Shown piece after piece: positions 4,490 through 22,732 of a stretch of DNA of 64,000 bases. Under the pieces are notes generated by a model. The model was not told the origin of the DNA. It did not search any database and saw only the letters and a list, made by a program, of their open reading frames with translations. The stretch lies in the NCBI GenBank assembly GCA_013289085.1, contig JABDAR010000002.1:69943-133942 (forward strand), written 5' to 3'. How positions within the stretch are numbered: the stretch's first letter is position 1; each line of letters begins with the position of its first letter. Origin of the DNA: Gammaproteobacteria bacterium. Lineage in GTDB: Bacteria; Pseudomonadota; Gammaproteobacteria; JABCZS01. The position numbers and the translations under genes were made by a program.

Positions 4490-5743
4490 TTAACGCTTCA
4501 TAGCATCAAAGAAATCTTCGTTCGTCTTCGTCGTTTTCAAGCGTTCAATCAAAAATTCCATCGCAGCAATTTCATCCATCGGATGAAGAATCTTACGCAG
4601 AATCCATAATTTTTGCAGCTCATCAGGTTTTGTTAATAACTCTTCACGACGAGTGCCTGAACGATTAATATTGATTGCTGGATAAACACGTTTTTCAGCG
4701 ATACGACGATCTAAATGCAATTCCATATTACCGGTGCCTTTAAATTCTTCGTAAATCACTTCGTCCATTTTGGAACCGGTGTCTACTAAGCAAGTAGCGA
4801 TAATCGATAAACTGCCGCCTTCTTCAATATTACGTGCCGCACCAAAAAAGCGTTTGGGTCTTTGCAGCGCGTTTGCATCCACACCACCTGTTAATACTTT
4901 TCCTGATGCAGGAATGACAGTGTTATATGCACGGGCTAAACGTGTGATCGAATCTAGTAAAATAATAACATCATGTTTATGTTCAACTAGACGTTTGGCT
5001 TTTTCCATGACCATTTCAGCCACTTGTACGTGACGGGTTGCAGGTTCATCAAATGTACTGGCAATAACTTCTCCACGAACAGATCGCGCCATTTCTGTCA
5101 CTTCTTCTGGACGTTCATCAATTAATAATACAATTAATTTACATTCAGGATAATTTTGCGCAATCGAATGTGCCATATTTTGCAGCATCATTGTTTTACC
5201 AGCTTTCGGTGGTGATACTATCAAACCACGTTGACCTTTACCTATGGGCGCTGCTAAATCTATTACACGGGCTGTCAGATCTTCTGTTGAACCATTGCCT
5301 TGTTCCATACGCATACGATCGCTTGGAAATAAAGGCGTGAGATTTTCAAATAAAATTTTGTCGCGACAATTTTCTGGCGGTTCGTAATTAATTTCATCTA
5401 CTTTCAACAAAGCAAAATAACGCTCACCTTCTTTAGGTGGGCGAATCAAACCAGAAACAGTATCGCCCGTGCGCAAATTAAAGCGTCTAATTTGACTAGG
5501 AGATACATAAATATCATCTGGACCTGCAAGATAAGAACTATCAGCAGAGCGTAAAAAGCCAAAGCCGTCTTGGAGAATTTCCAACACGCCATCACCCGAA
5601 ATATTTTCTTTCTTGGCGTGACTTTTTAAAATATTAAATATAAGGTCTTGTTTACGGGTGCGAGCAAAATTTTCAACGCCTTCTTCCGCAGCAAGCTGCA
5701 TCAGCTCAGCGGCTGGTTTTTTTTTCAGTTCTGTTAAGTTCAT
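4490..5743 (-). CDS. rho: transcription termination factor Rho
   Basis: 417 aa with a Walker A motif (PPKAGKT) and typical Rho N-terminal and RNA-binding regions. It has the conserved trxA-rho arrangement. Confidence 0.95.
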
Positions 5744-5896
5744 AGTTGTATGAGATTTCCTGATAGGATGTTGTTGTTAATGAATAATTGTTTTGGTGGT
5801 TAAACTTTAGATAAAAAAGTGCGGTCAAACATTTATACCCGAAGGTATGAGTGTAAGAGTAACACTTCTTTATCCGAAAATCAATATAGATTTTTA

Positions 5897-6226
5897 CTAA
5901 TCTTTAACATGCGCGTCAATAAATGAGGTGAGTTGCGCCTGGGTCACAGCCCCAACTTGGGTCGCCAACACTTCGCCGCCTTTAAATAACATTAAAGTAG
6001 GAATGCCTCTGACACCGTATTGACTTGGCGTCTGCGTATGATCATCAACATTAATCTTAACCACTTGAATTTTATCAGAATATTGTGCAGCTATGGCCTC
6101 TAATGCCGGTGCAATGGCTTTACAAGGACCGCACCAAGGTGCCCAAAAATCTACTAAAACCGGTATGTCAGCTTCTAAGACCATAGATGTAAAATCATCA
6201 TCGCCTACGGCTTGTATATGTCCCAT
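5897..6226 (-). CDS. trxA: thioredoxin
   Basis: 109 aa with the WCGPCK active site. Confidence 0.95.
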   Translation of the reverse strand: MGHIQAVGDDDFTSMVLEADIPVLVDFWAPWCGPCKAIAPALEAIAAQYSDKIQVVKINVDDHTQTPSQYGVRGIPTLMLFKGGEVLATQVGAVTQAQLTSFIDAHVKD

Positions 6227-6303
6227 CTGTTTTCTCCTTTTTTAAAGTACTAATCATAGCCTGAGTCTTTGCTAAAAATCAATTAGGCCCTACACTTCTT
6301 TTA

Positions 6304-7503
6304 ATGAATATACACGTTTTTTCCAAAACTTTTATGTCTATGGGTGTGATCTTATTGATCATTATCAGCACTGCTGTTGAGACTGATATTTTCCTGCCTA
6401 GCTTTCCTGCATTAAAAGAATATTTTGCTACCACAGAAAGTAAAATCCAATTACTCATCAGCGTTAATTTTATCGGTCTTTGTATAGCTTCATTTTTTTA
6501 TGGACCACTTGCAGATGCTTATGGTCGCAGGCCTGTTTTATTAATCGGTATGTTATTATTTACTTTAAGTAGCATCGCCTGCACTTTGGCGAATAGTTTA
6601 GAAGTGATGTTATTTTGGCGCTTTATACAAGGCTTGGGCGCTAGTGTAACGTTTATTGTGCCAAAAACCATGATTCACGATAAGTATGACCGTGAAGAAG
6701 CGGTTAAAATACTGGGTATTTATGGCAGTATTATCACTTTTGTATTAGCCTTTGCACCCATTATCGGTAATTATTTATATCTCACTTACTCATGGCGTGC
6801 TAATTTTATTTTTATTGCCATATTAGCCACATTTACTTTGTTATCTTCAATCATATTTTTGCGTGAATCACTGCATAAAGAAAAGCGCATTTTGATGCAC
6901 GCACCCACCATCATGAGGAACTATAAAAAATTATTAACTAACCCCACAGCCATGGCCTATTTATATTTATGCTGCGCTATTGTCGGTGCTTATGTGACTT
7001 ATATCACCAATTTATCGTTGATTTTCATTAATCATTTAGGCGTCAGCAAAATTAATTATGGCTACTATCAAGGCGTTATTTTGTTAGTTTTTGCCACCAT
7101 GAGTCTTTTTTCAATTCATATCATCAACCGATTAGGTATGCATTTTACTCGTATTCTGGGCATGAGTATTACTGTCATAGGCGCAATATTATTTTTAGTT
7201 ATTGCCCTATGGTTCCCTAATAGTCCATTATTTATTACCACAAGTATGACCTTATTTACCGGCGGATTAGCGCTTAATTTAGGCATTTTTTCAGGCGATT
7301 ATGTCAATGTCTATCCTGAAATAAAGGGTGTGGCAGCCGCCCTAGGCCGGAGTATAGGACTTATTATCACGTTAATATTTTTAGGTCTTTCTGCATATTT
7401 CTTTGATGGTACTATGCTGCCAATTGCATGGATTACCTTTTTTGCCGGCATATCTTCTTGGGCTGTATTATACTGGTTACATGTTAAAAGGAACTTTTCA
7501 TGA
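6304..7503 (+). CDS. MFS transporter, Bcr/CflA (DHA1) drug-resistance subfamily, copy 1
   Basis: 399 aa with about 12 predicted TM helices. N-terminal motif LPSFPALKEYF...GPLADAYGRRP is typical of Bcr/CflA exporters. It overlaps the next gene by ATGA. Confidence 0.85.
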   Translation: MNIHVFSKTFMSMGVILLIIISTAVETDIFLPSFPALKEYFATTESKIQLLISVNFIGLCIASFFYGPLADAYGRRPVLLIGMLLFTLSSIACTLANSLEVMLFWRFIQGLGASVTFIVPKTMIHDKYDREEAVKILGIYGSIITFVLAFAPIIGNYLYLTYSWRANFIFIAILATFTLLSSIIFLRESLHKEKRILMHAPTIMRNYKKLLTNPTAMAYLYLCCAIVGAYVTYITNLSLIFINHLGVSKINYGYYQGVILLVFATMSLFSIHIINRLGMHFTRILGMSITVIGAILFLVIALWFPNSPLFITTSMTLFTGGLALNLGIFSGDYVNVYPEIKGVAAALGRSIGLIITLIFLGLSAYFFDGTMLPIAWITFFAGISSWAVLYWLHVKRNFS

Positions 7504-8687
7504 GTACACGTATCTTTTCTCAAGCTTTTATGTCCATGGCTGTCGTTATATTGGTCATCATTACTTCCGCAATTGAAACCGATATTTTCCTGCCTAGTTT
7601 CCCTGCACTTAAAGATTATTTTGCGACCAGTGAACAAAAAATTCAAATGTTGATCACGATGAATTTTGTTGGTTTATGCATAGCGTGTTTCTTCTATGGC
7701 CCACTCGCAGATGCATACGGTCGCAGACCCATATTATTAGGGGGTATGTTTTTATTTACTGTCAGTAGCATAGCCTGCACGTTAACCAACAACCTAGATA
7801 CGCTATTATTTTGGCGCTTTATTCAAGGCTTAGGCAGTAGTGTTGCCTTTGTCGTACCTGAGACCATTATTCATGATAACTACAACCGAGAAAAAGCTGC
7901 AAAAATTTTAGGTATTTATGGCAGCATTATCACCTTCGTTATGTCATTTGCACCCATTATTGGCAATTATTTATATTTAACATTTTCCTGGCATGCTAAT
8001 TTTATATTTGTAGCCGTGTTATCCATTATTACTTTTTTAGCAGCATTGATTTTTGTGCGTGAATCACTCCATAAAGAAAAGCGTGTCATTCTGCATCCAC
8101 CTACAATTTTAAGCAGCTACAAAAAAATCCTCACAACACCCAAAGCCATGGCCAATTTATATTTATGTGTAGCCGTATCTGCTGCCTACTTTACATACAT
8201 CGCCAATTTATCCTTAATTTTTATTGATCATTTAAAAGTAGACAAAGAACAATTTGGTTATTATCAAGGATTTATTTTATTAGTTTTTGCAATCATTAGT
8301 TTTTCAGCAGGCAAAATTATCGCTGTCCTAGGATTAAATCGAGCACGCATTTTAGGAACACAAATTACTGTAGCGGGTTCCATATTATTTTTATGCGTAG
8401 CAATATGGGCCGGAGATAGCGCAATACTGATTACATTAGCGATGTCAATATTTACAGGTGGATTAGCTGTCAATTCTGGCATATTTTCTGGGGATTTTAT
8501 CAATATTTATCCTGAAATAAAAGGTATCGCAGCAGCCCTCGGTGCTAGTGTTGGCTTATTAGCGATGTTAGCGCTTATTGCACTATCAGGGATTTTCTTT
8601 AATGGAACGATGATGCCTATTGCTATTATGATATTTTTCTCAGGGATGTCATCGATATTGGTGTTACGTTGGTTGCATACGCATTAA
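7500..8687 (+). CDS. MFS transporter, Bcr/CflA (DHA1) subfamily, copy 2 (tandem paralog)
   Basis: 395 aa, collinear with and highly similar to the upstream gene along its whole length. Its stop TAA (8685..8687) overlaps the NRPS stop (8684..8686) within TTAA. Confidence 0.85.
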   Translation: MSTRIFSQAFMSMAVVILVIITSAIETDIFLPSFPALKDYFATSEQKIQMLITMNFVGLCIACFFYGPLADAYGRRPILLGGMFLFTVSSIACTLTNNLDTLLFWRFIQGLGSSVAFVVPETIIHDNYNREKAAKILGIYGSIITFVMSFAPIIGNYLYLTFSWHANFIFVAVLSIITFLAALIFVRESLHKEKRVILHPPTILSSYKKILTTPKAMANLYLCVAVSAAYFTYIANLSLIFIDHLKVDKEQFGYYQGFILLVFAIISFSAGKIIAVLGLNRARILGTQITVAGSILFLCVAIWAGDSAILITLAMSIFTGGLAVNSGIFSGDFINIYPEIKGIAAALGASVGLLAMLALIALSGIFFNGTMMPIAIMIFFSGMSSILVLRWLHTH

Positions 8688-11600
8688 AAATCAAAGTTTA
8701 TAATTTGCCCAAGTATATTACTGTGATGCGCTTGTTCTAACTGAATCACAGATAGTTGAGTAAGATTAGCGACAGCCTGATCGATATTATTATATTTAAT
8801 ATTATTGATAACATCTTGATCCGCACTCTTAATTGCTTCATAAGCATCATAAGTATCATCCCTTAATAAAGCTTTATATAAAACAATTTTTGTATTATGA
8901 AGCTTACATGAAATTGTCTGTTTATTTAGCATTTCATCGACTTCACTCACAGTCAATATATTGTCTACATATTCTTGACTAAAACCTTGAGCTAATAAAT
9001 GTTTTTTCAAGGCATTATCTTCTTCAGGATCATCAACTGTATAATGGTAGACTGAATCTAATAAATATATTTTAATATTAGTTATTCCTTCCGATTCTAA
9101 AAGAGCGGCCACTTCCAAAGCGATCACTCCACCCAGGGACCAGCCCAAAATATAATAATTATCTTGCTTAGTTTCTTCCATAATGCGTTTTATCGATTGC
9201 AAATAATATTTTGCTAAATCCGTTAATTTATTTATTTTTTTGGTATGATATAAATTATAAGAATCAACTCCAAAACAACTAAATTTATCAGATAATCTTT
9301 CAGCTAAATCATGATAAACTTCACAACCCGCATGACCAGGATGTATCATAAATAAATTTGGTTTCCCGGTGGTATTATTTAACTTCACCGTTGGTTCGTA
9401 TGTTCTTGTTAAAGCCACCTTGTTTTTTAATTGGTTGATGGTTTTGGAAACAAAAAGATCGGATATTTTTAATTGTGAATTGAAACTATGGTTAATTTTA
9501 GATAGTAATTTTATAGATAAAATACTATTACCGCCCAATTTGAAAAAGTCATCGTTTATACCTAGATTTTCTTCTTTCACATCCAATACTTCTGACCAAA
9601 TTTTTACTAATTGCTTTTCAATTTCGCTACGTGGCGCAATATATTTATCTGTACTAGTAAACTCTGTATCAGGCAATGCCCTGCGATCGATTTTACCATT
9701 AATCGTCAAGGGCAATTTATCAATTTTCATGAATATGGCGGGTATCATATATTCAGGTAAATGTTCTGATAAATATTGATTTAAATCATTTTTATCGATC
9801 TCTTGATCAGCAACATAATAACCTACTAAATATTTATTTTCGCCCCCGCATGCTAATACTACTGTTTGCTTAATATTTGGGAAATGAGCTAGCACTGACT
9901 CCACTTCTCCAAGCTCAATTCTAAAACCTCTGATTTTTACCTGAAAATCGCTTCTGCCGATATATTCAATATTGCCATCTGGTAAATAGCGCACTAAATC
10001 ACCAGTTTTATATATCCGTGAATTTTCTTCAAATGGATTATTTATAAATTTTTGTGCGGTTAATTCAGGATTATTGAGATATCCTCTGGCTAAACCAGCA
10101 CCACCTATATATAACTCACCTATAGCTCCAATAGGAACTGGATGTAATTGCGCGTCTAACACATATACTTTGGTATTGGCAATAGGGCAACCGATGTGAA
10201 TAGGCTCATTAGGTTTAAGTAGTGTGGTTGTAGAAACAATGGTCGTCTCAGTAGGCCCGTAACTATTTAAAACTAAAGCTGACGTATCTATTGGATGTAA
10301 ATATTGCTCACCACCCAATATAATCACTTTTATTTTTGATAAAGCATCTTTACTTAAATTTGAAATATAAGATGGAGTTGTATTTAAACAGGTAATTTTA
10401 GCTTTATTGATATAAGAATCTAATAAGTTCATATCTAGTAAAGTTTCTTTATTGACTAAATGCAATGTTGAACCAGATAACAAATTCATAAATATTTGCT
10501 CTACAGCTGCATCAAAAACATAATTTGCGGTAAGTAAAGTTTTTTGATTTTTAAAATTTAAACTGTCATTTTGGAACTTGATTTCATTAACCACACTTTG
10601 ATGTTCGATCATAACACCTTTAGGTTTACCTGTAGTCCCAGAAGTATATATTATATAGGCTAGATTTTTTGAACTTATATTAAGTTCAGGATTGGAAATG
10701 CTTTGCTTTAATAGTAATTTCTCAATAGATTTATCATTTATTGACAATACATTGTTTTTATTTGTAATAGTAGCTTTTGTTTTTATATCCGATAATATAT
10801 ATTTTACTCTATCATCTGGATACTCAGGATCCATTGGAACATATGCGCCTCCAGATTTCAAAACTCCTAATATTGCAATTAACATCTTATCACTTCTATC
10901 CAAACAAAGTGCTACGGGATCATCACCCTTAATTTTATAAGTTTTTCTTAGGTGGTGTGCCAATTGATTGGCTTTATGGTTAAGTTCTTGATAGGTTAAT
11001 TTAACATCTCCATAGACTACAGCTATATTATTAGGGGTTTTTTTGACCTGCTCTTCAAATAATTGATGAATAGTTTTATTTTTAGGATACTTTTTATCAG
11101 TCTCATTCCAGTCGTATATTATTTTCTTATAATACTTAGGTAACAAATAATTTATATTGACGTGTAATTGCTTAGGGTTTTCAATTACTTGTTTGATAAT
11201 TAAATTTATAGTGTCAAGTAAATCTTTTATAGTATTTTTTGAAAATAATTCTCCAGCATATTCAATTTCCAAAATAATTTTCTCTTTATTCTCCATGGCT
11301 GTTAAACATAATGGATAATCTATATCTTCAACAATTGTCTCAAAGTTAACATTTAATCCATTCATTTTAGCATTTTGATCTGGATAATTTTCGAATACTA
11401 ATAAGCTTTCAAATAACCTTTGTCCATCTTTTTGCAATTTTGCTAAGTTCATATTTCCATGGGCGCTCATTTCATTGAGTGAAATTTGAATTGATGATAT
11501 CATTTCAAAGATTGTTTTTGCTTCTTCATGATTGACGATGAGTGGCAACGTATTAATATATAATCCAACAGACTGCTCTATATTATCAATCGGCAGATTA

Positions 11601-14600
11601 CGTCCGGATATTGTTGTACCTACTATAGTTGTTTTACTATTACCATAAATACTTAAAATACTATGCCAGCAGTATTGTAGTATCGCATTTATGGTGAAGC
11701 CATGTGATTTAGCAAATGATTTAATATTTTTATACAAAATTCCCGATATATTTATTTCTTTCTTTTTCCTATCTAAAATATAGGTATAAGTTTTTAAATT
11801 TACTTTGTGTTTTAGTGGTTTTATAAGCCCACCTAAATCGGTATGATCTTCAATTTGGTTTACAGAATCTAGCCAATATGTGGAATCATATGTGTTTTGA
11901 AGATATTTCTGGATCTGTAAATAGCATGTATCTTCAGACTGTGTAATACTCATGTTATTTTTTAAATTTAAATAAGTTTGATGAACATAATCTAATAATA
12001 TAGGCACACTCCATCCATCTAATATAATATGATGATTACTGATGATGCTGGTATACAAAGACAAGGATTGTTTAATTAAATAAATTCTCAATAATCCACC
12101 TTGATCTAATTGGTAATTTTCTTGTCTATCGGCGGCCATTAATTCTCTTATCTTTGTCTCTTGTTCATTCATATTAAAACTTGAAATATCGATGTAATGC
12201 CAGTTAAGTTTTTGACTTTTATCTATCACTTGAACCAGTTCGTCTTCCCAGGAAAATCTAAGTCTTAATCCTGGAAATTTAGCAATTGCATATTCCCAAG
12301 ATTTTTTATATAAATCTGGATTCAATTCATTATGATAGCGATATATCATTTGTATACGATATGCGGTATCTTCTTTCCCTTGATTTATAGCATGATAAAT
12401 AAATCCTTGTTGCAAATTATTTGCTAAGAATATATTACTTACTTCTGTGTTATTTTGAAGTATATCTAAATATTCTGGAGAAATAATATTATCTATATCA
12501 CTGACGGTTAAATAGCTACGCTGTAAATTTACAGTATAATGAATTATCTCCCTTAACCTTTCTAAAAAAATATTGGAAAATTTACTTAAATTGTCTTGAC
12601 TTAACTTGGCACTTATATCAAAAATTAATTTACCATCACTGATATATCCATTTGCTTCGATGATATTTGAATCTTTATTTTCTAATGAAACAGCGATTCC
12701 ACTGGATTCAGAAGTTATATTTTCAAACTGCCCAAGATAATTAAAAACAATACAAGGTAATTTACTATAACCATATAATGCACCAAATCCTATACCTTTA
12801 TTGGGCAATAATCTTAAATGTTCTTTAGTTGCAATAATAGATTTTGATAAGTCTCCATGTGCAGTCAAGCAAATTGGAAACATCGTTGTAAACCAACCTA
12901 CAGTATGATTGATATCAATATCATTCACGATAGCCTCACGACCATGTCCTTCTAAAGTAATATAATTGATAGAGCAACCTGTCAGTTCAACTAAAGATAA
13001 ATTAAAAGCAGTTAATAATAAATCGTTGATTTCGGTGTTAAATGCTATATGGCTATCAGATAATAGTTTACGAGTATAGTTTTTATCTAATTCGATTATA
13101 ATATTTTTATCTACATTTTTATTTTCTATTAAATTTGTAAGATGCTTATTATATTTATTTACTTCTTGAATCATCTGTTTCCAATATTTATTTTCTGCTG
13201 TGTGCTTCTGCGGATACTCATTAACAACATTTATCCATTGGCGATAACTTGTGCCTTTATAACCTAATATCGTCTCAACATTATTTGAAGTCTCCGACTC
13301 TAAGTGAGAATAAATTTCCATCAGATCAGCTGATAATATTCTCCAGCTGACCGAATCGATAATGAGATGATGTGCAGCAATAAATATTCTAGCACTTCCA
13401 TCTTTGTAACCATTTATATAGCCAAAGCTATAAAGTGGTTCATCCCCCATTAACTCAAAATGGCTTTGCCAACCTGTTAATATTACATCTAAATCTTTTG
13501 AATTTTCCAAAGTATTTAAATCTAAAATATGTAATTTTGGTACATTTATTTTTACATTATAAAACTGTACAATTCCTAATTTTTTAGTTTTTTTATAATT
13601 AATTCTCAGTGCATCATGATATTCTACCAATTTAACTAAACTAGATTTCAATAATTCACAATTTAATTCTTTTGTTTTAATTAAAAATGATTGATTCCAA
13701 TGTCCAGGCTTATTGAATTCTCCATGCATAATATGATCAAAAAACCATTTTTGGATAGGTAGGAATTTTAAATCCCCATTCAAAACTCCTTCTTCTCGTA
13801 TTATGTGTGCCTTTTTAGTATTCAATAATTGGGAGGCAATAATATTTTTATACAAATTATCGATGGTTTTATAATTGAAAATATCTTTAATATTAACATG
13901 CAATCCTAAATGTTGTCGTAAACGACTTACTAATTGAATGCTTTTAATACTATCTCCACCCAATTTAAAAAAATCATCATTAATACTTAATTTACCTTCA
14001 TCAATGCTCAATACAGCAGACCAAATTTTCACTAATTTCTTTTCAATCTCTGTATTCGGAGCCACATATGTTTCATCATTTGTGAACTCTGGAATAGGTA
14101 ATGCCTTGCGATCTAATTTTCCATTAATAGTCAGAGGGAACTTATCTAACTGTACTAATGCCGCTGGCATCATATAATTCGGAAAATAATTAGATAAATA
14201 TTTAGTTAATGCATCTTTATCTAGTTGATTTTCTGCGACATAATAACCTACTAAGTATTTGTCTTGTGAACCTTGTACCAATACAACTGTTTGCCGAATA
14301 CCTGAATAATTTAAAATTCTTGTCTCTATTTCTTCTAGTTCTATTCTGAATCCTCTGATTTTTACTTGAAAATCAACTCTGCCTATATATTCTATATTTC
14401 CATCCAGCAAATAACGAACTAGATCTCCTGTTTTATATAATTTAGTGTTTTCTTGAAATGGATTAGGTACAAATTTTTGTGCAGTTAATTCAGGATTATT
14501 TAAGTAACCCCTTGAAATACCAGCACCACCTACATATAGTTCTCCTATGCCTCCTAATGGACTTGGCTTTAAACTGGAATCTAAAATATATGCAGATCGA

Positions 14601-17600
14601 TTATTAATAGGCTTACCAATGGGAACGGAATTTCTAGCTTTCAACGCATTAGCATCTACTTCCATCGTACAACTAAAAGTTGTATTTTCTGTAGGACCAT
14701 AACCATTAATAAAATGTTTTGGCCTATTTTTGGAGTTTACAAGTTCATTAATTATTTTATAATTTAATGCTTCGCCGCCCACCAACAAATATTTGAGAGA
14801 ACGAAACAATTCATTATTTTGGAGATATAATTCGTCAAATAAGGTTTTTGTTAACCATAATATAGAGATAGCATTTGATTCAATTGTTTTCCTAAATAAA
14901 GAAATATCCGCGACCAAACCTAATGTTTCTGAAGGAATATAAAGTTTAGCGCCATTGAGAATTGCTCCCCATATTTCAAATGTAGCTGCATCAAAAACCG
15001 TATCTGCTAATTGTAAAATACAATCAGATTCTGAAATATCCACATATGTTATACCTTTTACAAGAGAAACAACCCCTACATGATTTACCATTACTCCTTT
15101 AGGTTTTCCTGTGGTCCCGGATGTATATATAACGTATGCTAAATTATTGGGTGTGACAATCTTAGATGGATTTAAAGTACTTCTATTCAATAATAATTTT
15201 TCAATCGATTGCCCATCCACGTTGAGTATATTATTTTTATTGGTTATTAATACCTTTGCTTTCATATCTGATAGCATATATTTTATTCTATCAGCAGGGT
15301 AACCAGGATCCATTGGCACGTAAGCAGCCCCAGCTTTAAGCACGCCTAAAATAGCTATAATCATTGTCTCATTTTTATCTAAACACAACGCACATAAATC
15401 ATCTCCTTGAATTTTATATTGATCTCTTAAATAATGAGCAAATTGATTGGCTTTATGATTCAGCTGTTTGTAGGTCAAAGTAGTATCTTGACACACTATT
15501 GCTATATTATTAGGCGTCTTTTTTACCTGATCTTCAAAAATCTGATGAATAGTTTTATTTATTGGAAAGTTTTTAAAAGTATTATTCCAATCTAAAACTA
15601 TTTTATGATAATCCTTAATATCCAAATAATTTAACTGATTTATTTTGATGGTTGAATTCGTATTGAGCTGAGATAATTGTTTTAAGATAAATTTAAAGGT
15701 ATTTATAAATTTTTTAATGGTATTAAGATCATACAAACTGGCCGCATATTCCATCTGAGCATAAAGATTTTCTGTGCTATCGTCAATCATTGTAGTAATA
15801 TCAAATCTAGCAATATTATCCTCTAATTTATACTCCTCCACTCCTGGCAAATAATCATTTCCAAAATTTTGAACTCCAAAAACATTTTGAAAAACTGGAT
15901 TTCTACTTGTATCTTTTTCTAAAGATAATGCAGCAACTAATTTCTCAAAAGGTAAATCTTGATATAATTGTGCCTCTTGGACATTTTTTCCGACCGCTTG
16001 TATATATGAAATGAGATATTCAGTTGGATCAATATTAGATCTTAATACCAAGGTATTAACGAAAAAACCAATTAAATTTTCAATACCAGAATAATGTCTG
16101 TTGGCAACAGGCGTGCCAATAACGATATCATTTTGATTTGAGTAAGATCTTAAAAATAAATAATACCCACTTAACAATACGCTGTATAAGCTTACTTTTA
16201 AATCTTTAGCTAATCTTCGCAGTTGTGATGATGTTCGTTTACCTAGGTTAAATGAAACGCGTCCACCCTTGTAGTCTATAATTTTAGGACGTATTTTATC
16301 TATAGGCATATTTAACAATTCAAAGCCTGTTAATTGGTCTTTCCAATACGCTAACTGTCTAGATAATACTTCTCCTGACAAATATTTTTTTTGCCATATT
16401 GCAAAATCTTTATATTGAATATACAATTCTGGCAAATTTGTATTTGAGCTATAATACTTTGATAATTCTTCTAAAAATATGTCATTCGACCATCCGTCAA
16501 ATGCAATATGATGAATGACTATACTTAAATAGAGTTCTTGCGTTTCTTTTACTTCATAATAAGAAACTTGTATTGGATATTCATTAGATAAATTATAGAC
16601 ATGATTTATATCTTTTGATAACAATTGGTCAAGATCCGATTTTTTCTCTACCTTTATAGTTGTGATCGGTAATTCTTTTTCTTCTAAAGTACATACTTTT
16701 TGATAAGGTTTTCCATCATGATCTAAAATAAGAGTTCTTAAAATCTCATGACGTTCAACAATTTTTAAAATGCTTTTAGTCAGTTTAGTTTTATCAAGTC
16801 CAGATATTTTTAGTATTATAGGGATATTATATGCACCACTTCCCTGTTCATAAGACTCTATAAACCACAATCGTTCTTGGGCAAAAGAAAGCTCTTGTTG
16901 TGCTTCATTTGCAAATACATGTTTTTTTATTACAAAATTTTCAGATTTATTTCCTAATAAAGAAGCTATTCTACTAATGTTTGTATGAGTCAAGATATCC
17001 CGCATACTTAAATTAACCCCTGAACTCTTCAGCTGATTCAAGAGCTTAATTGCTGTAATACTATTTCCTCCCAATCCATAAAAATCATCATTGATACCAA
17101 TTTTGTCTTTATTAATTCCCAAAACTTCTGACCATATTTTTACTAATTTTATTTCAATTTTGGAGCATGGCGCAACATATGTATCTATATGAGAAAATTC
17201 AACTACAGGTAACGCTTTGCGGTCTAACTTGCCATTTATAGTTAATGGCAATTTTTCAAGTTTCATGAAAGCTACGGGAACCATGTATTCTGGTAATGAT
17301 TTGGATAAATATTTTTTTAGTGACTCATTATCTAATTCTTGATCTGATACATAGTAACCTACTAGACACTTATTTTGCTGCTCTTGAACTCCGATTGCCG
17401 CCTGCTTAACACCGGGATAACCTGCAAGTGTTGTTTCTATTTCTCCTAGCTCAACTCTATAACCTCTAATTTTAATTTGTAAATCTACTCTTCCTATAAA
17501 TTCAATATTACCATCCGGTAAATAATAGGCTAAATCACCTGTTTTATACATACGTTCATTGGGCTCAAATGGGTTGGCAATAAACTTTTGTGCAGTTAAC

Positions 17601-18712
17601 TCTGGTTGATTTAAATATCCTCTTGCAAGCCCAATTCCACCTATAAACAATTCACCTTGTTCACCTATAGGTACAGGATTTAAATGTGAATTAAGAATGT
17701 ATATTTTGGTATTAGCAAGTGGACGCCCTATATGAATTAATTGATTAGCTTTTACCGCTGTAATAGTTGAGCCGATGCAAGTCTCAGTCGGTCCATAACA
17801 ATTCAACACTGTGCCAGGTGTATCTAAATGCTTCAGATATTGTTCTCCACCTAAAAAAAGGAGATTAATTTTAGATAGCACTTCTTTACTTAGATTTGAT
17901 ACATAAGATGGAGTAGTATCTAACCAATTAATTTTATTTTTTATAATATAAGATTCTATAAATGGAATATTAAGTAAATATTCTTTAGCAACTATATGTA
18001 GCTGTGAACCCAAAAGTAAACTAATGAAAATATGCTCCACAGACACATCAAATACATACTCTGCAGTCAATAATGATCGTGGATTCTTGAACTTAAAATT
18101 AGATAACTGAAAGGTGATTTCATTAACCAGACTTTTATGCTCAATCATAACCCCTTTGGGAGTGCCGGTTGTGCCTGAAGTGTAAATTACATAAGCAATA
18201 TTGTCAGGATTATTATTTTTGATTGGATTAGTATTTTTATAATCTTTTAATGATTTTTCAGTCTTCTGATCATCTATTGTTAACGATTTATTTTTAGCAA
18301 ATCTTTTCTGATAGATTGCATTTGTAATTAAAACTTTAGCTTTAGTATCAGAAAGCATATAATCAATTCTATCCTGCGGATAACTCGGTGCAATCGGCAC
18401 ATATGCCGCGCCAGATTTAAGCACGCCTAATATTGCAATCAGCATTTTTTCACTTCTATCTAAACAAAGCGCAATCAAATCATCACCTTTAATCTGATAA
18501 GTTTGTCTTAAATAGTGGGCTAATTGATTGGCTTTTTGGTTGAGTTGTTGATAGGTTAATTGAATATTGCCAAAAACTACTGCAATATTATCAGGTGTTT
18601 TTAATACTTGTTCTTCAAATAATTGTTGAATTGTTTTATCTGGAAAGGGAGCTTTGGTTTGATTCCATTCATAAATTATTTTATTAAAATCTTTTGGATT
18701 AAGCGAAGCCAT
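8684..18712 (-). CDS. trimodular non-ribosomal peptide synthetase, A-T-C-A-T-E-C-A-T-TE
   Basis: 3342-aa ORF. It contains three full sets of adenylation core motifs (LTYxxL, YTSGTTGxPKG, NxYGPTE, GELxIGG, YKTGD, KIRGxRIELxE, NGKxDRxAL). It has three carrier motifs (GGNS, GGDS, GGNS), three HHxxxD(G) condensation/epimerization motifs, and a C-terminal GWSLGG thioesterase. Confidence 0.95.
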   Translation of the reverse strand: MASLNPKDFNKIIYEWNQTKAPFPDKTIQQLFEEQVLKTPDNIAVVFGNIQLTYQQLNQKANQLAHYLRQTYQIKGDDLIALCLDRSEKMLIAILGVLKSGAAYVPIAPSYPQDRIDYMLSDTKAKVLITNAIYQKRFAKNKSLTIDDQKTEKSLKDYKNTNPIKNNNPDNIAYVIYTSGTTGTPKGVMIEHKSLVNEITFQLSNFKFKNPRSLLTAEYVFDVSVEHIFISLLLGSQLHIVAKEYLLNIPFIESYIIKNKINWLDTTPSYVSNLSKEVLSKINLLFLGGEQYLKHLDTPGTVLNCYGPTETCIGSTITAVKANQLIHIGRPLANTKIYILNSHLNPVPIGEQGELFIGGIGLARGYLNQPELTAQKFIANPFEPNERMYKTGDLAYYLPDGNIEFIGRVDLQIKIRGYRVELGEIETTLAGYPGVKQAAIGVQEQQNKCLVGYYVSDQELDNESLKKYLSKSLPEYMVPVAFMKLEKLPLTINGKLDRKALPVVEFSHIDTYVAPCSKIEIKLVKIWSEVLGINKDKIGINDDFYGLGGNSITAIKLLNQLKSSGVNLSMRDILTHTNISRIASLLGNKSENFVIKKHVFANEAQQELSFAQERLWFIESYEQGSGAYNIPIILKISGLDKTKLTKSILKIVERHEILRTLILDHDGKPYQKVCTLEEKELPITTIKVEKKSDLDQLLSKDINHVYNLSNEYPIQVSYYEVKETQELYLSIVIHHIAFDGWSNDIFLEELSKYYSSNTNLPELYIQYKDFAIWQKKYLSGEVLSRQLAYWKDQLTGFELLNMPIDKIRPKIIDYKGGRVSFNLGKRTSSQLRRLAKDLKVSLYSVLLSGYYLFLRSYSNQNDIVIGTPVANRHYSGIENLIGFFVNTLVLRSNIDPTEYLISYIQAVGKNVQEAQLYQDLPFEKLVAALSLEKDTSRNPVFQNVFGVQNFGNDYLPGVEEYKLEDNIARFDITTMIDDSTENLYAQMEYAASLYDLNTIKKFINTFKFILKQLSQLNTNSTIKINQLNYLDIKDYHKIVLDWNNTFKNFPINKTIHQIFEDQVKKTPNNIAIVCQDTTLTYKQLNHKANQFAHYLRDQYKIQGDDLCALCLDKNETMIIAILGVLKAGAAYVPMDPGYPADRIKYMLSDMKAKVLITNKNNILNVDGQSIEKLLLNRSTLNPSKIVTPNNLAYVIYTSGTTGKPKGVMVNHVGVVSLVKGITYVDISESDCILQLADTVFDAATFEIWGAILNGAKLYIPSETLGLVADISLFRKTIESNAISILWLTKTLFDELYLQNNELFRSLKYLLVGGEALNYKIINELVNSKNRPKHFINGYGPTENTTFSCTMEVDANALKARNSVPIGKPINNRSAYILDSSLKPSPLGGIGELYVGGAGISRGYLNNPELTAQKFVPNPFQENTKLYKTGDLVRYLLDGNIEYIGRVDFQVKIRGFRIELEEIETRILNYSGIRQTVVLVQGSQDKYLVGYYVAENQLDKDALTKYLSNYFPNYMMPAALVQLDKFPLTINGKLDRKALPIPEFTNDETYVAPNTEIEKKLVKIWSAVLSIDEGKLSINDDFFKLGGDSIKSIQLVSRLRQHLGLHVNIKDIFNYKTIDNLYKNIIASQLLNTKKAHIIREEGVLNGDLKFLPIQKWFFDHIMHGEFNKPGHWNQSFLIKTKELNCELLKSSLVKLVEYHDALRINYKKTKKLGIVQFYNVKINVPKLHILDLNTLENSKDLDVILTGWQSHFELMGDEPLYSFGYINGYKDGSARIFIAAHHLIIDSVSWRILSADLMEIYSHLESETSNNVETILGYKGTSYRQWINVVNEYPQKHTAENKYWKQMIQEVNKYNKHLTNLIENKNVDKNIIIELDKNYTRKLLSDSHIAFNTEINDLLLTAFNLSLVELTGCSINYITLEGHGREAIVNDIDINHTVGWFTTMFPICLTAHGDLSKSIIATKEHLRLLPNKGIGFGALYGYSKLPCIVFNYLGQFENITSESSGIAVSLENKDSNIIEANGYISDGKLIFDISAKLSQDNLSKFSNIFLERLREIIHYTVNLQRSYLTVSDIDNIISPEYLDILQNNTEVSNIFLANNLQQGFIYHAINQGKEDTAYRIQMIYRYHNELNPDLYKKSWEYAIAKFPGLRLRFSWEDELVQVIDKSQKLNWHYIDISSFNMNEQETKIRELMAADRQENYQLDQGGLLRIYLIKQSLSLYTSIISNHHIILDGWSVPILLDYVHQTYLNLKNNMSITQSEDTCYLQIQKYLQNTYDSTYWLDSVNQIEDHTDLGGLIKPLKHKVNLKTYTYILDRKKKEINISGILYKNIKSFAKSHGFTINAILQYCWHSILSIYGNSKTTIVGTTISGRNLPIDNIEQSVGLYINTLPLIVNHEEAKTIFEMISSIQISLNEMSAHGNMNLAKLQKDGQRLFESLLVFENYPDQNAKMNGLNVNFETIVEDIDYPLCLTAMENKEKIILEIEYAGELFSKNTIKDLLDTINLIIKQVIENPKQLHVNINYLLPKYYKKIIYDWNETDKKYPKNKTIHQLFEEQVKKTPNNIAVVYGDVKLTYQELNHKANQLAHHLRKTYKIKGDDPVALCLDRSDKMLIAILGVLKSGGAYVPMDPEYPDDRVKYILSDIKTKATITNKNNVLSINDKSIEKLLLKQSISNPELNISSKNLAYIIYTSGTTGKPKGVMIEHQSVVNEIKFQNDSLNFKNQKTLLTANYVFDAAVEQIFMNLLSGSTLHLVNKETLLDMNLLDSYINKAKITCLNTTPSYISNLSKDALSKIKVIILGGEQYLHPIDTSALVLNSYGPTETTIVSTTTLLKPNEPIHIGCPIANTKVYVLDAQLHPVPIGAIGELYIGGAGLARGYLNNPELTAQKFINNPFEENSRIYKTGDLVRYLPDGNIEYIGRSDFQVKIRGFRIELGEVESVLAHFPNIKQTVVLACGGENKYLVGYYVADQEIDKNDLNQYLSEHLPEYMIPAIFMKIDKLPLTINGKIDRRALPDTEFTSTDKYIAPRSEIEKQLVKIWSEVLDVKEENLGINDDFFKLGGNSILSIKLLSKINHSFNSQLKISDLFVSKTINQLKNKVALTRTYEPTVKLNNTTGKPNLFMIHPGHAGCEVYHDLAERLSDKFSCFGVDSYNLYHTKKINKLTDLAKYYLQSIKRIMEETKQDNYYILGWSLGGVIALEVAALLESEGITNIKIYLLDSVYHYTVDDPEEDNALKKHLLAQGFSQEYVDNILTVSEVDEMLNKQTISCKLHNTKIVLYKALLRDDTYDAYEAIKSADQDVINNIKYNNIDQAVANLTQLSVIQLEQAHHSNILGQIINFDF
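8687..9370 (-). other. NRPS terminal thioesterase domain
   Basis: LFMIHPGHAGCEVY, nucleophile elbow ILGWSLGG (Ser3192), and C-terminal His in QAHHSNIL. Confidence 0.8.
9419..9640 (-). other. NRPS carrier domain 3, Ser3063
   Basis: DDFFKLGGNSILSIKL. Confidence 0.85.
9674..11080 (-). other. NRPS adenylation domain A3 (aa ~2545-3013), paralogous to A1
   Basis: Motifs AYIIYTSGTTGKPKGV, FDAAVEQ, NSYGPTETTIV, GELYIGGAGLARGY and NGKIDRRAL. Specificity residues are D A E N I G S I V K. Confidence 0.85.
11138..12511 (-). other. NRPS condensation domain C2 (DCL-like, follows the E domain)
   Basis: NLQQGFIYH N-terminal motif and SNHHIILDGWS active site (aa 2225-2235). Confidence 0.8.
12518..13795 (-). 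other. NRPS epimerization domain
   Basis: LPIQKWFF, AAHHLIIDSVSWRIL, TLEGHGRE and FNYLGQF are the E-domain core motifs. Confidence 0.85.
13838..14056 (-). other. NRPS carrier domain 2, Ser1588
   Basis: DDFFKLGGDSIKSIQL. The GGDSI variant typically precedes epimerization domains. Confidence 0.85.
14093..15565 (-). other. NRPS adenylation domain A2 (aa ~1050-1540), Val-type pocket
   Basis: Motifs AYVIYTSGTTGKPKGV, FDAATFE, LWLTKTLF, LLVGGEA, NGYGPTENTTF and NGKLDRKAL. The specificity residues D A F W L G G T F K match the canonical Val code as I recall it. Confidence 0.85.
15608..16900 (-). other. NRPS condensation domain C1 (LCL-like)
   Basis: LSFAQERLWFIE N-terminal motif and HHIAFDGWS active site (aa 734-742). 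Confidence 0.8.
16958..17170 (-). other. NRPS carrier (T/PCP) domain 1, Ser551
   Basis: DDFYGLGGNSITAIKL phosphopantetheine attachment motif. Confidence 0.85.
17198..18640 (-). other. NRPS adenylation domain A1 (aa ~25-505)
   Basis: Motifs AYVIYTSGTTGTPKGV, FDVSVEH, NCYGPTETCIG, GELFIGGIGLARGY, YKTGDL, KIRGYRVELGEIE and NGKLDRKAL. Specificity residues read against the GrsA numbering are D V E D F G C I G K. Confidence 0.85.
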
Positions 18713-18713
18713 T

Positions 18714-20030
18714 TCAATCCCTCAACACATGCATCCCCTTCAACACATTAACTGCTTCGTGTAATGGGTAATCAATGAGCTCTTCGCTGTTTTCGTTTTT
18801 ATCTTCATCATTATCCGTTACCACTTGGATTTCATCGATCTCTTGCACATTTGCATTATCTAAATGATTAGTCAAATGGGCTTCTCTTGTTTCTTCATAA
18901 ATGACTTCTTCTTTAATTTTTGTGGCTTTGATGTCTTCTAAAATAACATCGGGAACTATACCTTCTGCTTGGATGGAATGTCCTGCAGGTGTGTAATATA
19001 ACGCTGTGGTTAATTTTACAGCGCCATCATTACCAATGGGTAATACTGTTTGCACAGAACCTTTGCCAAAACTTTTCTCGCCCATAATGACTGCGCGTTT
19101 ATGATCTTGTAATGCGCCGGCTACAATTTCTGATGCGGACGCTGAACCGCCATTGACCAATACTACGATGGGTACGCCTTCTAGTAAATCACGGCCATTG
19201 GCTTTTTCTTTCATTTCACTTTCAGGTGCGCGACCTCTGGTAGATACTATGACTCTGTCATAATCTAATGTTCTGCTGTCTAAAAATACATTGGAAACGG
19301 ATACGGCTGAATCTAAGACACCGCCAGGATTATTACGTAAATCTAGTACTACACCGTATAATTGATTGTTAGAGGCGAGTTTAATTTCTTCAATGGCTTT
19401 TAATACATCTTTTATAGTTTGATCTTGGAAGTGGCTGACCCGCAGATAAGCATAATGAGGTTCTAACATTTCATAGCGAACACTTTCAACTTTAATGATA
19501 TCACGTGTCAGATCTTTGACGATGGGTAATGAAGCACCTTCACGCACGATGGTTAACTTTACCCTTGATCCTTTATCGCCACGCATTAAATCAACAGCTT
19601 CACGTAAGGTTAAACCTTTGACTAAGCTATTATCGATTTTTACAATAGTATCGCCTGCTTCAATACCGGCACGTGCCGCTGGGGTATTATCTATTGGACT
19701 AATGACTTTTACAAAACCATCTACCATCGTCACTTCTAAACCTAGGCCGCCAAATTTTCCGGCAGTACTGGCGCGCAAGTCGTTAAAATCTTCTTTATCT
19801 AAATAAGCAGAATGAGGATCTAGACCTGACAACATGCCGCTAATCGCATAATCAATTAATTCCGCATCGGAAACAGGTTCGACATAATATTGGCGAATTT
19901 CCTCGATAACATAAGTAAATTTTCTGAGCTCTTCTACCGGTAATTGTTCATCGGCTAGCGCTTGTGCCATAAATAAATAGCTCAAAACTATAATAGAGCT
20001 CAACCGTAAAAAATGTTTCGATGCTAGCAT
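18714..20030 (-). CDS. ctpA: S41-family carboxyl-terminal processing protease
   Basis: 438 aa with a signal peptide, a PDZ-like region (AARAGIEAGDTIVKID) and the catalytic motif GGSASASEIVAGALQD. Confidence 0.9.
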   Translation of the reverse strand: MLASKHFLRLSSIIVLSYLFMAQALADEQLPVEELRKFTYVIEEIRQYYVEPVSDAELIDYAISGMLSGLDPHSAYLDKEDFNDLRASTAGKFGGLGLEVTMVDGFVKVISPIDNTPAARAGIEAGDTIVKIDNSLVKGLTLREAVDLMRGDKGSRVKLTIVREGASLPIVKDLTRDIIKVESVRYEMLEPHYAYLRVSHFQDQTIKDVLKAIEEIKLASNNQLYGVVLDLRNNPGGVLDSAVSVSNVFLDSRTLDYDRVIVSTRGRAPESEMKEKANGRDLLEGVPIVVLVNGGSASASEIVAGALQDHKRAVIMGEKSFGKGSVQTVLPIGNDGAVKLTTALYYTPAGHSIQAEGIVPDVILEDIKATKIKEEVIYEETREAHLTNHLDNANVQEIDEIQVVTDNDEDKNENSEELIDYPLHEAVNVLKGMHVLRD

Positions 20031-20039
20031 AAAAAACCC

Positions 20040-21179
20040 CTAAGATTTCGACATGGGCGGCGCAAGCCAAGTCATTGGATTTTGCACCTCGCCATTAAAG
20101 CGTATTTCGAAGTATAACCCAGGATTTGCAACTGGGCCGCTTTTTCCGACCTGAGCTATAGATTCATTGACATCTACCCAATCACCTGCATTCTTATATA
20201 AACTTTGATTATGGGCATATAAGCTCATATAACCATCGCCGTGATCTACAATAGTAATCAAACCAAAACCTCGTAACCAATCTGCATAAACCACGCGCCC
20301 TTTATATATAGAACGCACGTCCTCTCCTTCAGGCGCTGCAATTAATATACCTTGCCAAGTATTATTACCGACATTGCTTTCCCCAAAACGATGCAGCACT
20401 TTGCCTTGCACCGGCCATGAAAGTCGACCTTGATGCGTTTTAATTGGTTTATTAGCATTACCCGTAAAAGTCGAACCACTTTGTTTTTTAAGACTGGCAA
20501 GCACGGCTTCTAGCGCTTGTTTATCGGCTTCTAAACTTTCTAAAGTCTGATTTTTTTCTTTAATATCGGTAAGCAATTCCTCAACTAAAGCACTTTGGGA
20601 TCTTTTTTGTTGAGTAAGTTCAGCATAAACAGCAGCTTGCTCCATTTCTAGCACATTTAATTTTTCTTGTTGTAATAATTGCTGCGCTCGTGTTTGCGCC
20701 AAGCTGTCTGTATCAATTTGAATTTGCGTGGCAATTTGACTGCGTGCCGCATTAAAATAATCAAAATAAACCAATAAACGACCTACAGTATGTGGATCGG
20801 ATTGATTAAGTAATAATTTCAATCCATCGAATTGTCCTAATAAAAAAGCACCGCGAATTTGTTCTCGCAACGCATCTTGTTGCACCTGCAATTCTTTTAG
20901 ACGCACTTCATATTCTACAGTCAGTGCTTCTAATACTTCTTCGGTTTTTGCAAGTTGATTTTGAGTTTTTTTCAAACTTTTAGACGATGTGGAAATTTCT
21001 AAATCTAGTTTTTTTAATTCATCTTGGAGTTTTTGTTGTTGATTTTTATCGGCAACCAATTCTGTAGTTAAATTTTTAATTTTATCAACCACAGTTTGTA
21101 GTTTAGTTTGCGAATCTGCAGAAGAATCTGCAAAGACCGCGCATGAAAAAAATAATATCCCTATAAAAAATAATCTCAT
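20040..21179 (-). CDS. envC: murein hydrolase activator / M23 (LytM) peptidase with coiled-coil N-terminus
   Basis: 379 aa with a signal peptide, a long Q/E/L-rich coiled coil and a C-terminal LytM domain (HGDGYMSLYAHNQSL, GLYFEIR). It has the conserved gpmI-envC position and overlaps the gpmI stop (ATGA). Confidence 0.8.
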   Translation of the reverse strand: MRLFFIGILFFSCAVFADSSADSQTKLQTVVDKIKNLTTELVADKNQQQKLQDELKKLDLEISTSSKSLKKTQNQLAKTEEVLEALTVEYEVRLKELQVQQDALREQIRGAFLLGQFDGLKLLLNQSDPHTVGRLLVYFDYFNAARSQIATQIQIDTDSLAQTRAQQLLQQEKLNVLEMEQAAVYAELTQQKRSQSALVEELLTDIKEKNQTLESLEADKQALEAVLASLKKQSGSTFTGNANKPIKTHQGRLSWPVQGKVLHRFGESNVGNNTWQGILIAAPEGEDVRSIYKGRVVYADWLRGFGLITIVDHGDGYMSLYAHNQSLYKNAGDWVDVNESIAQVGKSGPVANPGLYFEIRFNGEVQNPMTWLAPPMSKS

Positions 21180-22696: not shown

Positions 22697-22732
22697 GAAA
22701 ATCCTCATATCTTTTAAAAATAAATGAATTCA

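Follow-up and report, generated by a model that had tools for sequence, protein, structure and literature searches.

The 64,000-nt stretch of DNA analysed here (positions 69,943 to 133,942 of contig JABDAR010000002.1, assembly GCA_013289085.1; hereafter the window) belongs to an uncultured gammaproteobacterium that is affiliated with the Legionellales, as is its sister species, and carries a nonribosomal peptide synthetase (NRPS) gene between the housekeeping genes ctpA and trxA, together with a tandem pair of genes for transporters of the major facilitator superfamily (MFS1 and MFS2). It seems that a lineage-specific cassette of 12.4 kb, consisting of the NRPS and the two MFS genes, was inserted once and has since been inherited vertically under purifying selection, with its peptide being made and exported, a reading to which we assign a probability of about 0.72. 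The insertion and its boundaries are directly visible when the locus is compared with those of its closest relatives.

Insertion between ctpA and trxA

The inserted DNA covers positions 6284-18713 (12,430 bp), which includes the NRPS gene (8684-18712, minus strand; an open frame of 10,029 nt encoding 3342 aa) as well as MFS1 (6304-7503) and MFS2 (7500-8687), both on the plus strand. Relatives of the host were sought with a CtpA scan of one genome per GTDB species, which returned only three close relatives, all of them metagenome-assembled genomes (MAGs; CtpA identity 88, 84 and 80%, one labelled Legionellales), the remaining matches being ~ 50-57% identical and mostly from Methylococcales. In the two nearest outgroup MAGs (loci L003 and L004), ctpA is followed by a spacer of 55-75 nt and then directly by trxA-rho, with neither an NRPS nor an MFS gene in between, which bears out the original prediction that the NRPS lies within DNA inserted among conserved housekeeping genes. 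The spacer of these empty sites is preserved in the window upstream of trxA (6227-6282, minus strand; TTGATT-18 nt-TATGAT, then AGGAG), where it can be aligned to both L003 and L004. The same prediction held that the NRPS alone had been acquired, but both MFS genes are missing from the empty sites as well, and a further locus (L085, discussed below) has the same MFS/NRPS pairing.

In the sister species (MAG SPRUCE_566), the NRPS begins right after ctpA and is equally low in GC (L002), while the junction on the trxA side lies at the same nucleotide as in the window (L091). Among the relatives in which the interval between trxA and ctpA was compared, the NRPS thus occurs at this locus in the sister species only, with a composition that is just as unlike that of the host. 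In a neighbour-joining tree of GpmI+EnvC+CtpA, the window groups with L002 (99%), followed by L003 (88%) and then L004, and because of this topology a single gain is favoured over two precise losses. A deeper outgroup in which ctpA adjoins trxA was not found, the adjacency being confined to this small clade. The order ctpA-NRPS-MFS-MFS-trxA is identical in an independent Logan assembly (SRR8422472, 88-kb contig), so that the arrangement is no assembly or binning chimera.

At the trxA side, the inserted DNA starts with 20 nt (6284-6303) that separate the junction from the ATG of MFS1, whereas at the ctpA side (18710-18730, minus strand) the end of ctpA and the start of the NRPS read ...TTGAGGGAT TGA A ATG. 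The two ends carry a 5-bp direct repeat (TCAAT on the plus strand, ATTGA on the minus strand), of which the copy at 6279-6283 is part of the trxA -35 hexamer TTGATT and the copy at 18714-18718 holds the TGA stop codon of ctpA. Scans for terminators, tRNAs, Rfam families and long repeats gave nothing that marks the ends of an island: the window contains no tRNA, no Rfam family, no long direct or inverted flanking repeat and no insertion sequence (IS), and Pfam finds no integrase or IS domain among its open reading frames (ORFs). An integrase, tRNA and IS had indeed been noted as absent, but the accompanying statement that no flanking direct repeat exists overlooked the TCAAT copies. When the usual signs of a genomic island are considered together, an empty site is present (L003 and L004, the junction alignment and the tree), the deviant composition described below is found in the NRPS and not in the two MFS genes, and the 5-bp repeat is the only trace of a mobility signature.

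The age of the insertion can be judged from L002, where positions 6453-7745 hold codons 1-431 of the NRPS of the sister species (428 aligned), i.e. the region of the first adenylation domain (A1). Over this region the synonymous divergence (dS) between the window and L002 is 0.985 and dN/dS is 0.20, while the flanking genes have a dS of 0.985 (ctpA), 0.84 (envC) and 1.25 (gpmI). The dS of the NRPS equals that of ctpA, which means that the NRPS and the flanking genes have diverged in step from the common ancestor onwards. At the other end of the gene, the carrier-thioesterase (T-TE) region has a dN/dS of 0.085 relative to a metagenomic fragment (L083). The NRPS is under purifying selection and the insertion is old, contrary to the recent acquisition implied by the original prediction.

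In composition the NRPS differs strongly from its surroundings. Compared with the 48 other ORFs of the window, its GC content is 0.301 (vs 0.386 ± 0.023), its GC at third codon positions (GC3) 0.211 (vs 0.301 ± 0.034) and its GC at four-fold degenerate sites 0.250 (vs 0.417 ± 0.058, with a minimum of 0.288). The mean GC of 60-nt lines is 0.302 within the NRPS versus 0.386 outside it (Mann-Whitney p = 3e-34), and the GC-corrected tetranucleotide deviation of 0.32 in NRPS windows is ~ 2x the background (0.12-0.19 elsewhere). Even the intergenic DNA of the window (GC 0.354) lies above the four-fold-site GC of the NRPS (0.25), and the amino acids FYMINK make up 0.36 of the protein versus 0.27 in the background and 0.255 in a homologue (41% identical) from a contig with 43% GC. 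The four 60-nt counts on which the foreign composition had been proposed (23.3, 35.0, 11.7 and 25.0% GC) were exact, and with GC, GC3, four-fold-site GC and tetranucleotides all shifted relative to the rest of the window, the calculation over the whole window confirms the proposal. It also confirms that the transporters are host-like, with GC 0.358 and 0.366 and GC3 0.345 and 0.323 for MFS1 and MFS2, respectively.

The compositional anomaly is therefore real, but it is uninformative on recency. The A1 region has a GC3 of 0.200 in the window, lower than the intergenic GC of 0.354, and one of 0.206 in L002, and a strong GC anomaly can thus outlast a synonymous divergence of ~ 1, which is a warning against the use of composition as evidence for recency. 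The lasting AT-richness may reflect a far more AT-rich donor with parallel amelioration in both lineages; alternatively, something may keep the NRPS gene AT-rich.

The ATG of the NRPS lies 1 nt past the ctpA stop codon and is preceded by a Shine-Dalgarno-like sequence (GAGGGA) within the last ctpA codons, which the NRPS thus borrows as its ribosome-binding site; the equivalent junction in L002 is TAG T ATG. Outside ctpA there is no space for a dedicated NRPS promoter, and neither end of the NRPS gave a terminator-like site in the terminator scan. The 1-nt stop-start junction implies co-expression of the NRPS with the gpmI-envC-ctpA operon, with which it would be co-transcribed. On the opposite side, the ATG of MFS1 is only 20 nt inside the insert, and the MFS promoter must therefore make use of the ancestral spacer or of trxA sequence. 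The cassette is a clean case of biosynthetic genes that became fixed without mobility genes, between a stop codon and the -35 box of the next gene.

The synthetase and its predicted product

The NRPS has the domain order A-T-C-A-T-E-C-A-T-TE (adenylation, carrier, condensation, epimerisation and thioesterase domains), and the catalytic motifs of all ten domains are intact. Pfam recognises three AMP-binding, three Condensation-type, three PP-binding and one Thioesterase domain, and with A, T, C/E and TE motifs all present the protein qualifies as a type I modular NRPS. All domains are on the minus strand. The first module consists of A1 (aa 32-495, 17228-18619) and T1 (aa 522-586, 16955-17149). 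The second consists of C1 (aa 604-1031, 15620-16903; SFAQERLW and HHIAFDG), which we take to be of the LCL subtype from published knowledge of these motifs, A2 (aa 1059-1540, 14093-15538), T2 (aa 1559-1622, 13847-14038) and E (aa 1651-2072, 12497-13762), and the third of C2 (aa 2096-2531, 11120-12427), A3 (aa 2552-3007, 9692-11059), T3 (aa 3034-3096, 9425-9613) and TE (aa 3119-3342, 8687-9358). The domains were placed by Pfam and by motifs.

Each of the adenylation core motifs A3 (TSGTTGxPKG), A5 (YGPTE), A7 (YxTGD), A8 and A10 (NGKxDR) is present three times, with a Pfam AMP-binding E-value of ~ 1e-77 per A domain, and the phosphopantetheine serine motifs LGGNSI, LGGDSI and LGGNSI are found at aa 547, 1584 and 3059, the second being of the form that is typical upstream of E domains. 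HHxxxD(G)-type active sites occur in all three C/E domains (HHIAFDG, HHLIIDS and HHIILDG), while the E-specific PIQKWF, EGHGRE and FNYLGQ are confined to the middle one. C2 is assigned to the DCL type on account of its position after E and its N-terminal NLQQGFIYH, which remains a prediction from motif and position. The GxSxG motif of the terminal thioesterase is GWSLGG at aa 3190 (Pfam Thioesterase E-value 1.3e-18).

The specificity codes were derived by alignment to a reference fragment of GrsA-PheA that reproduces the canonical Phe code DAWTIAAICK. The code of A2 (DAFWLGGTFK) is identical to one that is tabulated as Val, as for MlcM (PMC9113097), which makes the prediction of Val a firm one. 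The codes of A1 (DVEDFGCIGK) and A3 (DAENIGSIVK), two domains that are 63% identical, allow a weaker prediction, i.e. an Arg/Lys-like residue for A1 and a basic residue for A3: acidic residues occupy positions 239 and 278, as suits a cationic side chain, and in the anabaenopeptin synthetase domain ApnA A1 (PDB 4D4G) the codes DVEDIGAIEK and DVESIGAIAK (DVEDIG..K and DVESIG..K) go with Arg, in some variants with Lys or Tyr (PMC5311044). The codes of ApnA A1 and those of A1 and A3 share the pattern D-V/A-E-D/S/N-x-G-x-I-x-K, and ApnA A1 (E-value 1.5e-115) is one of several A domains of solved structure to which window A1 has a match. Nevertheless, the agreement with ApnA A1 extends to 6-7 of the 10 code positions only, and the similarity is generic, with LgrA, McyA and TycA reaching equal or higher scores. 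Full-text searches gave no exact literature match for either code, and A1 of the sister species has the code DMEDIGSII-. The predicted product would therefore be a tripeptide of the form (Arg/Lys-like)-D-Val-(Arg/Lys-like), in which only the Val assignment is firm; the other substrates and the mode of release are suggested by the codes and the domain order.

An enzyme that primes the carrier domains is not encoded nearby: no phosphopantetheinyl transferase (PPTase) or MbtH domain was found by Pfam in window ORFs of ≥90 aa, nor by a six-frame motif search, and the 64-kb window holds no regulator and no stand-alone tailoring gene. The same searches confirm the earlier statement that mobility, PPTase, MbtH and separate tailoring genes are absent from the window. 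The conclusion once attached to it, namely that a stand-alone NRPS is unusual in such a genome, does not hold, since NRPS clusters are the most prevalent class of biosynthetic gene clusters in Legionella, where one Sfp-type PPTase encoded elsewhere serves all clusters and provision in trans is thus normal (PMC5126622).

Under the single-insertion reading, the cassette would have entered exactly at the junction of the ctpA stop codon and the trxA promoter in the common ancestor of the host and its sister species, and would have been passed on vertically under purifying selection ever since. The NRPS would be co-transcribed and translationally coupled with gpmI-envC-ctpA, with the MFS pair being divergent from trxA. 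A trans-acting Sfp-type PPTase encoded elsewhere would prime T1-T3, after which A1 would load a basic amino acid (Arg/Lys-like), C1 would couple it to the Val loaded by A2, and the E domain would turn this Val to the D form. The DCL-type C2 would then add a second basic residue, loaded by A3, so that TE could release the tripeptide (basic)-D-Val-(basic), for which MFS1 and MFS2 would serve as exporters.

The transporters and the origin of the cassette

MFS1 and MFS2 are tandem paralogues (66% identical) whose genes overlap by 4 nt (7500-7503), and MFS2, a DHA1/Bcr-CflA-like transporter (Pfam MFS_1), is convergent with the NRPS, the two stop codons overlapping in TTAA. Their designation as Bcr/CflA transporters stands in so far as TIGR00710 (Bcr/CflA) is still the best-scoring family for both, but not as strict membership, given that their scores (188.9 bits for MFS1 and 193.8 bits for MFS2) are just under the cut-off of 200.9; the pumps would nonetheless work like Bcr/CflA members. 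A third MFS gene in the window (28183-29352, plus strand) is a true Bcr/CflA member (TIGR00710 278 bits) and closest to PunC. Its identity to MFS1 and MFS2 is only 27%, for which reason it was discarded as a candidate origin of the tandem pair. ORFs of similar length are found at the matching position in L003 and L004.

Legionellales MAGs carry single homologues of MFS1 and MFS2 (64-66% identical) at a conserved housekeeping site (maeB-DUF308-MFS...dsbC-rpsP), and further paralogues are found among Ank, SidE and TPR genes. In a tree of the MFS proteins, the NRPS-linked copies are sister to the clade of the housekeeping site, and the tree and the housekeeping-site homologues together indicate that the pumps are native to the Legionellales lineage. 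The contigs with MFS paralogues bear SidE-PDE, ankyrin, TPR and AvrB-like genes, a gene content that fits a Legionella-like, host-associated lifestyle. In L085, an MFS gene (70% identical) is convergent with a colinear but larger NRPS (54% identical) with the same 4-nt overlap of stop codons and with a similar GC contrast between MFS and NRPS (0.39 vs 0.31) as in the window. It follows from this pairing that the MFS genes were probably already linked to an NRPS before the insertion took place. The colinear modules of L085 carry other codes (Val, Ser and one without assignment), and these relatives therefore make different peptides.

The pairing has not been left undisturbed, however. In L083 the T-TE part (581-1645) is 92% identical to the window (dS 0.46) whereas the adjoining MFS (1663-2598), convergent with it across an 18-nt gap, is only 69% identical (dS ~ 1.6), the window counterparts being 8684-9750 and 7500-8687. 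This discontinuity suggests that recombination occurred at the convergent NRPS/MFS junction. L083 was also considered as the missing continuation of the sister MAG locus, against which its dS (0.46 vs 0.985) argues; the contigs do not overlap. In the sister MAG itself (L091), a homospermidine synthase gene (hss; 4911-6329, minus strand; best PDB match 2PH5, E-value 1e-154) is convergent with the MFS on the trxA side and followed by the start of a second MFS (6465-6539, plus strand). An hss gene is not found anywhere in the 64-kb window.

These observations bring up the possibility that the cassette was assembled on site in two steps, i.e. that the MFS genes first reached the ctpA-trxA spacer by duplication and transposition of the lineage's own transporter, and that the low-GC NRPS later landed between MFS and ctpA. 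The pumps would then not be dedicated peptide exporters, but possibly tied to polyamine (homospermidine) handling. Such an origin would agree with the host-like composition of the MFS genes as opposed to that of the NRPS, with the native ancestry of their family, with the hss gene between the two sister MFS genes and with the break in divergence at the NRPS/MFS boundary of L083. We nevertheless regard it as unlikely: a genome with MFS genes but without an NRPS at this site was not found, L085 has the same convergent pair with a 4-nt overlap, with a deeply diverged NRPS, and L083 is a convergent pair too, both of which argue for a pairing that predates the insertion. In yet another scenario, the whole block is ancestral, its low GC results from relaxed selection and AT pressure on a large, weakly expressed gene, and L003 and L004 have undergone precise deletions. 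GC3 that holds steady at ~ 0.20 in the window and L002 despite a dS of ~ 1, 5-bp repeats that could mediate precise excision, and the restriction of the ctpA-trxA adjacency to this small clade, which leaves no deeper outgroup to polarise the change, are all compatible with it. It is improbable all the same, as two independent precise deletions would be needed on the inferred tree, homologous NRPSs occur in other genomic contexts, and the four-fold-site GC of the NRPS is lower than that of intergenic DNA and of every other gene, i.e. below what a neutral host equilibrium would give. The FYMINK fraction (0.36, against 0.27 in the background and 0.255 in the homologue of ordinary composition) speaks against it as well.

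Finally, the NRPS could be the decaying, non-functional remnant of an old transfer without any product. The window shows neither a PPTase or MbtH gene nor a regulator or a promoter of the NRPS's own, the relatives in Candidatus (Ca.) Megaera are IS-disrupted fragments, and the closely related copy in L083 is seemingly split into two ORFs. We consider decay very improbable, though, because an open frame of 10,029 nt in 30%-GC DNA would hardly last without selection, dN/dS is 0.085-0.20, every catalytic motif is intact in each of the ten domains, and two independent assemblies give the same ORF.

Several points weigh against a single insertion with subsequent vertical inheritance and peptide export. 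Nothing accounts for the movement, be it a mobility gene, a tRNA, an inverted repeat or an att site, and while the 5-bp repeat has a chance probability of ~ 0.1% per alignment position, microhomology is conceivable as well. The polarity of the event depends on two outgroup MAGs only, with a bootstrap of 88% for the position of L003, and the sister NRPS is known only from the codons visible in L002. GC3 of the NRPS has not shifted toward the host in either lineage despite the dS of ~ 1, whereas simple amelioration predicts that it should have. The MFS and NRPS compositions differ, which makes two separate insertion events conceivable, and L083 tells that the NRPS/MFS pairing has been reshuffled at least once. 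With hss between the sister MFS genes, the pumps may serve polyamine transport instead of the peptide export proposed for MFS1 and MFS2. With regard to the product, no more than 6-7 of the 10 positions in the codes of A1 and A3 agree with characterised Arg/Lys codes.

Beyond the single-insertion reading, one may speculate that the product is an undescribed dicationic D-Val tripeptide (or an oligomer, if the TE is iterative), made constitutively through the coupling to an envelope-maintenance operon, that it serves the association with a protist host (in defence, competition or host manipulation), and that the AT-richness is actively maintained, e.g. by xenogeneic silencing. This extended proposal is a doubtful one at present; if true, an NRPS product and its role would be characterised for a lineage of uncultured Legionellales.

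Relation to known systems and neighbouring genes

Statements on the closest homologues rest on fragments of the NRPS and on loci L085, L097 and L100, with fragment matches of ≤ ~ 1,575 aa, among which the query protein itself was not returned. Outside the lineage, the fragments reach at most 42-48% identity among the retrieved matches, the named ones being from Ca. Megaera, Ca. Bandiella, Caedimonadaceae, Amoebophilus, Rickettsiales, Francisella, Legionella (best fragment match 42%) and Chryseobacterium. The closest relatives of the T-TE region outside the lineage are ~ 44% identical (Neisseriaceae, Ca. Bandiella, Ca. Megaera and Chryseobacterium), and a JGI metagenome scan with this region gave nothing closer than 44%. 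A tblastn search of PLSDB plasmids returned only generic NRPS matches of 34-37% (Bacillus and Photobacterium) and no close plasmid-borne relative. Related NRPSs lie on ~ 29%-GC contigs (L098 and L099) or, in L100, form an island of low GC within a contig of 43% GC, and the 41%-identical, colinear homologue in L097 has an ordinary composition on a 43%-GC contig. The best explanation is that the NRPS backbone derives from a lower-GC gene pool common to host-associated bacteria.

The best named T-TE relative is a 456-aa NRPS remnant in Ca. Megaera polyxenophila (L082; CP104166.1, 908-929 kb), which lies amid DDE transposases, three tandem phage-type integrases and a serine recombinase, i.e. a degraded NRPS in a graveyard of mobile elements. 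The NRPSs of Ca. Megaira/Megaera and Ca. Bandiella resemble that of the window in their low GC, their occurrence in intracellular bacteria and a T-TE match of 43-44%, and their products are uncharacterised, with a defensive role having been proposed (PMC10132079). Unlike the window gene, the copy examined from Megaera is a fragment flanked by IS, which gives no information on cassette structure, and no pairing with MFS genes was seen there.

The orphan NRPS clusters of Legionella are similar in that they come from the same host order, are of the modular type I and have no clustered PPTase, their products being unknown and their patchy distribution having been put down to horizontal gene transfer (Tobias et al. 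2016, PMC5126622). They differ in that the window lineage is uncultured, with CtpA only ~ 50-57% identical to that of any cultured genus retrieved, and in that the order A-T-C-A-T-E-C-A-T-TE was not noted in the consulted passages of that survey. The description of the locus as an undescribed small-molecule system thus applies only in the sense in which it applies to most orphan NRPSs; rather than a novel system, it represents a familiar type of gene cluster, here an orphan one made up of a canonical type I NRPS and genes for exporters. It leaves the current understanding of NRPS systems unchanged. Its interest lies in adding to the poorly sampled uncultured Legionellales an orphan NRPS that is intact and kept by selection, that is predicted to make a simple product and that is therefore tractable for heterologous expression.

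Classical genomic islands share with the block a deviant GC and oligonucleotide composition, a precise empty site and accessory cargo. The block differs from them in lacking an integrase, tRNA target, IS and long repeats, in being old (dS ~ 1) yet not ameliorated, and in being wired into a housekeeping operon through the 1-nt stop-start junction.

ACV synthetase is likewise a single polypeptide (~ 3,300-3,800 aa) of three modules that starts with an A domain without a starter C, contains a single E domain, ends in a TE and produces a D-Val tripeptide; its order is A-T-C-A-T-C-A-T-E-TE, with E and Val in module 3, and its substrates are aminoadipate (Aad), Cys and Val. The window NRPS is also A-first, with three modules, one E, a terminal TE and a predicted D-Val tripeptide, but it has E and the Val code in module 2, followed by a C domain predicted to be of the DCL type. 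Membership of the ACV synthetases was rejected on account of this domain order and of the codes of A1 and A3, which are of the basic type and not those of Aad or Cys.

The flanks of the block were identified as ORFs with Pfam matches. Towards lower coordinates lie trxA (5897-6226) and rho (4490-5743), and on the other side ctpA (18714-20030), a gene for an M23/EnvC-like peptidase (envC, 20040-21179) and gpmI (21176-22708), all on the minus strand. A rhodanese (yibN)-secB-gpsA block follows beyond gpmI, divergent from gpmI-envC-ctpA. Farther on, the plus strand carries a complete biotin operon (bioB-bioF-bioH-bioC-bioD), followed by a gene for a periplasmic Cu/Zn superoxide dismutase (33495-37747), which shows that the genome has not undergone strong metabolic reduction.

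Two low-GC ORFs of 219 and 156 aa (25112-26238, plus strand; GC 0.315 and 0.344), located in the interval from gpsA to a SpoU methylase gene, have no Pfam family. In L003 a single 238-aa ORF takes this spot, with a 27% match to the 219-aa ORF, whereas L004 has a 543-aa ORF without a detectable match and L002 lacks a match too, which makes this interval a second variable spot of the syntenic block. Another ORF without a Pfam family lies between thrA and rho (286 aa; 3531-4391, minus strand), for which no homologue was detected in L002, L003, L004 or L091. It is rich in Asn and Gln, has a hydrophobic stretch at its C-terminus and may be a lineage-specific secreted or effector-like protein.

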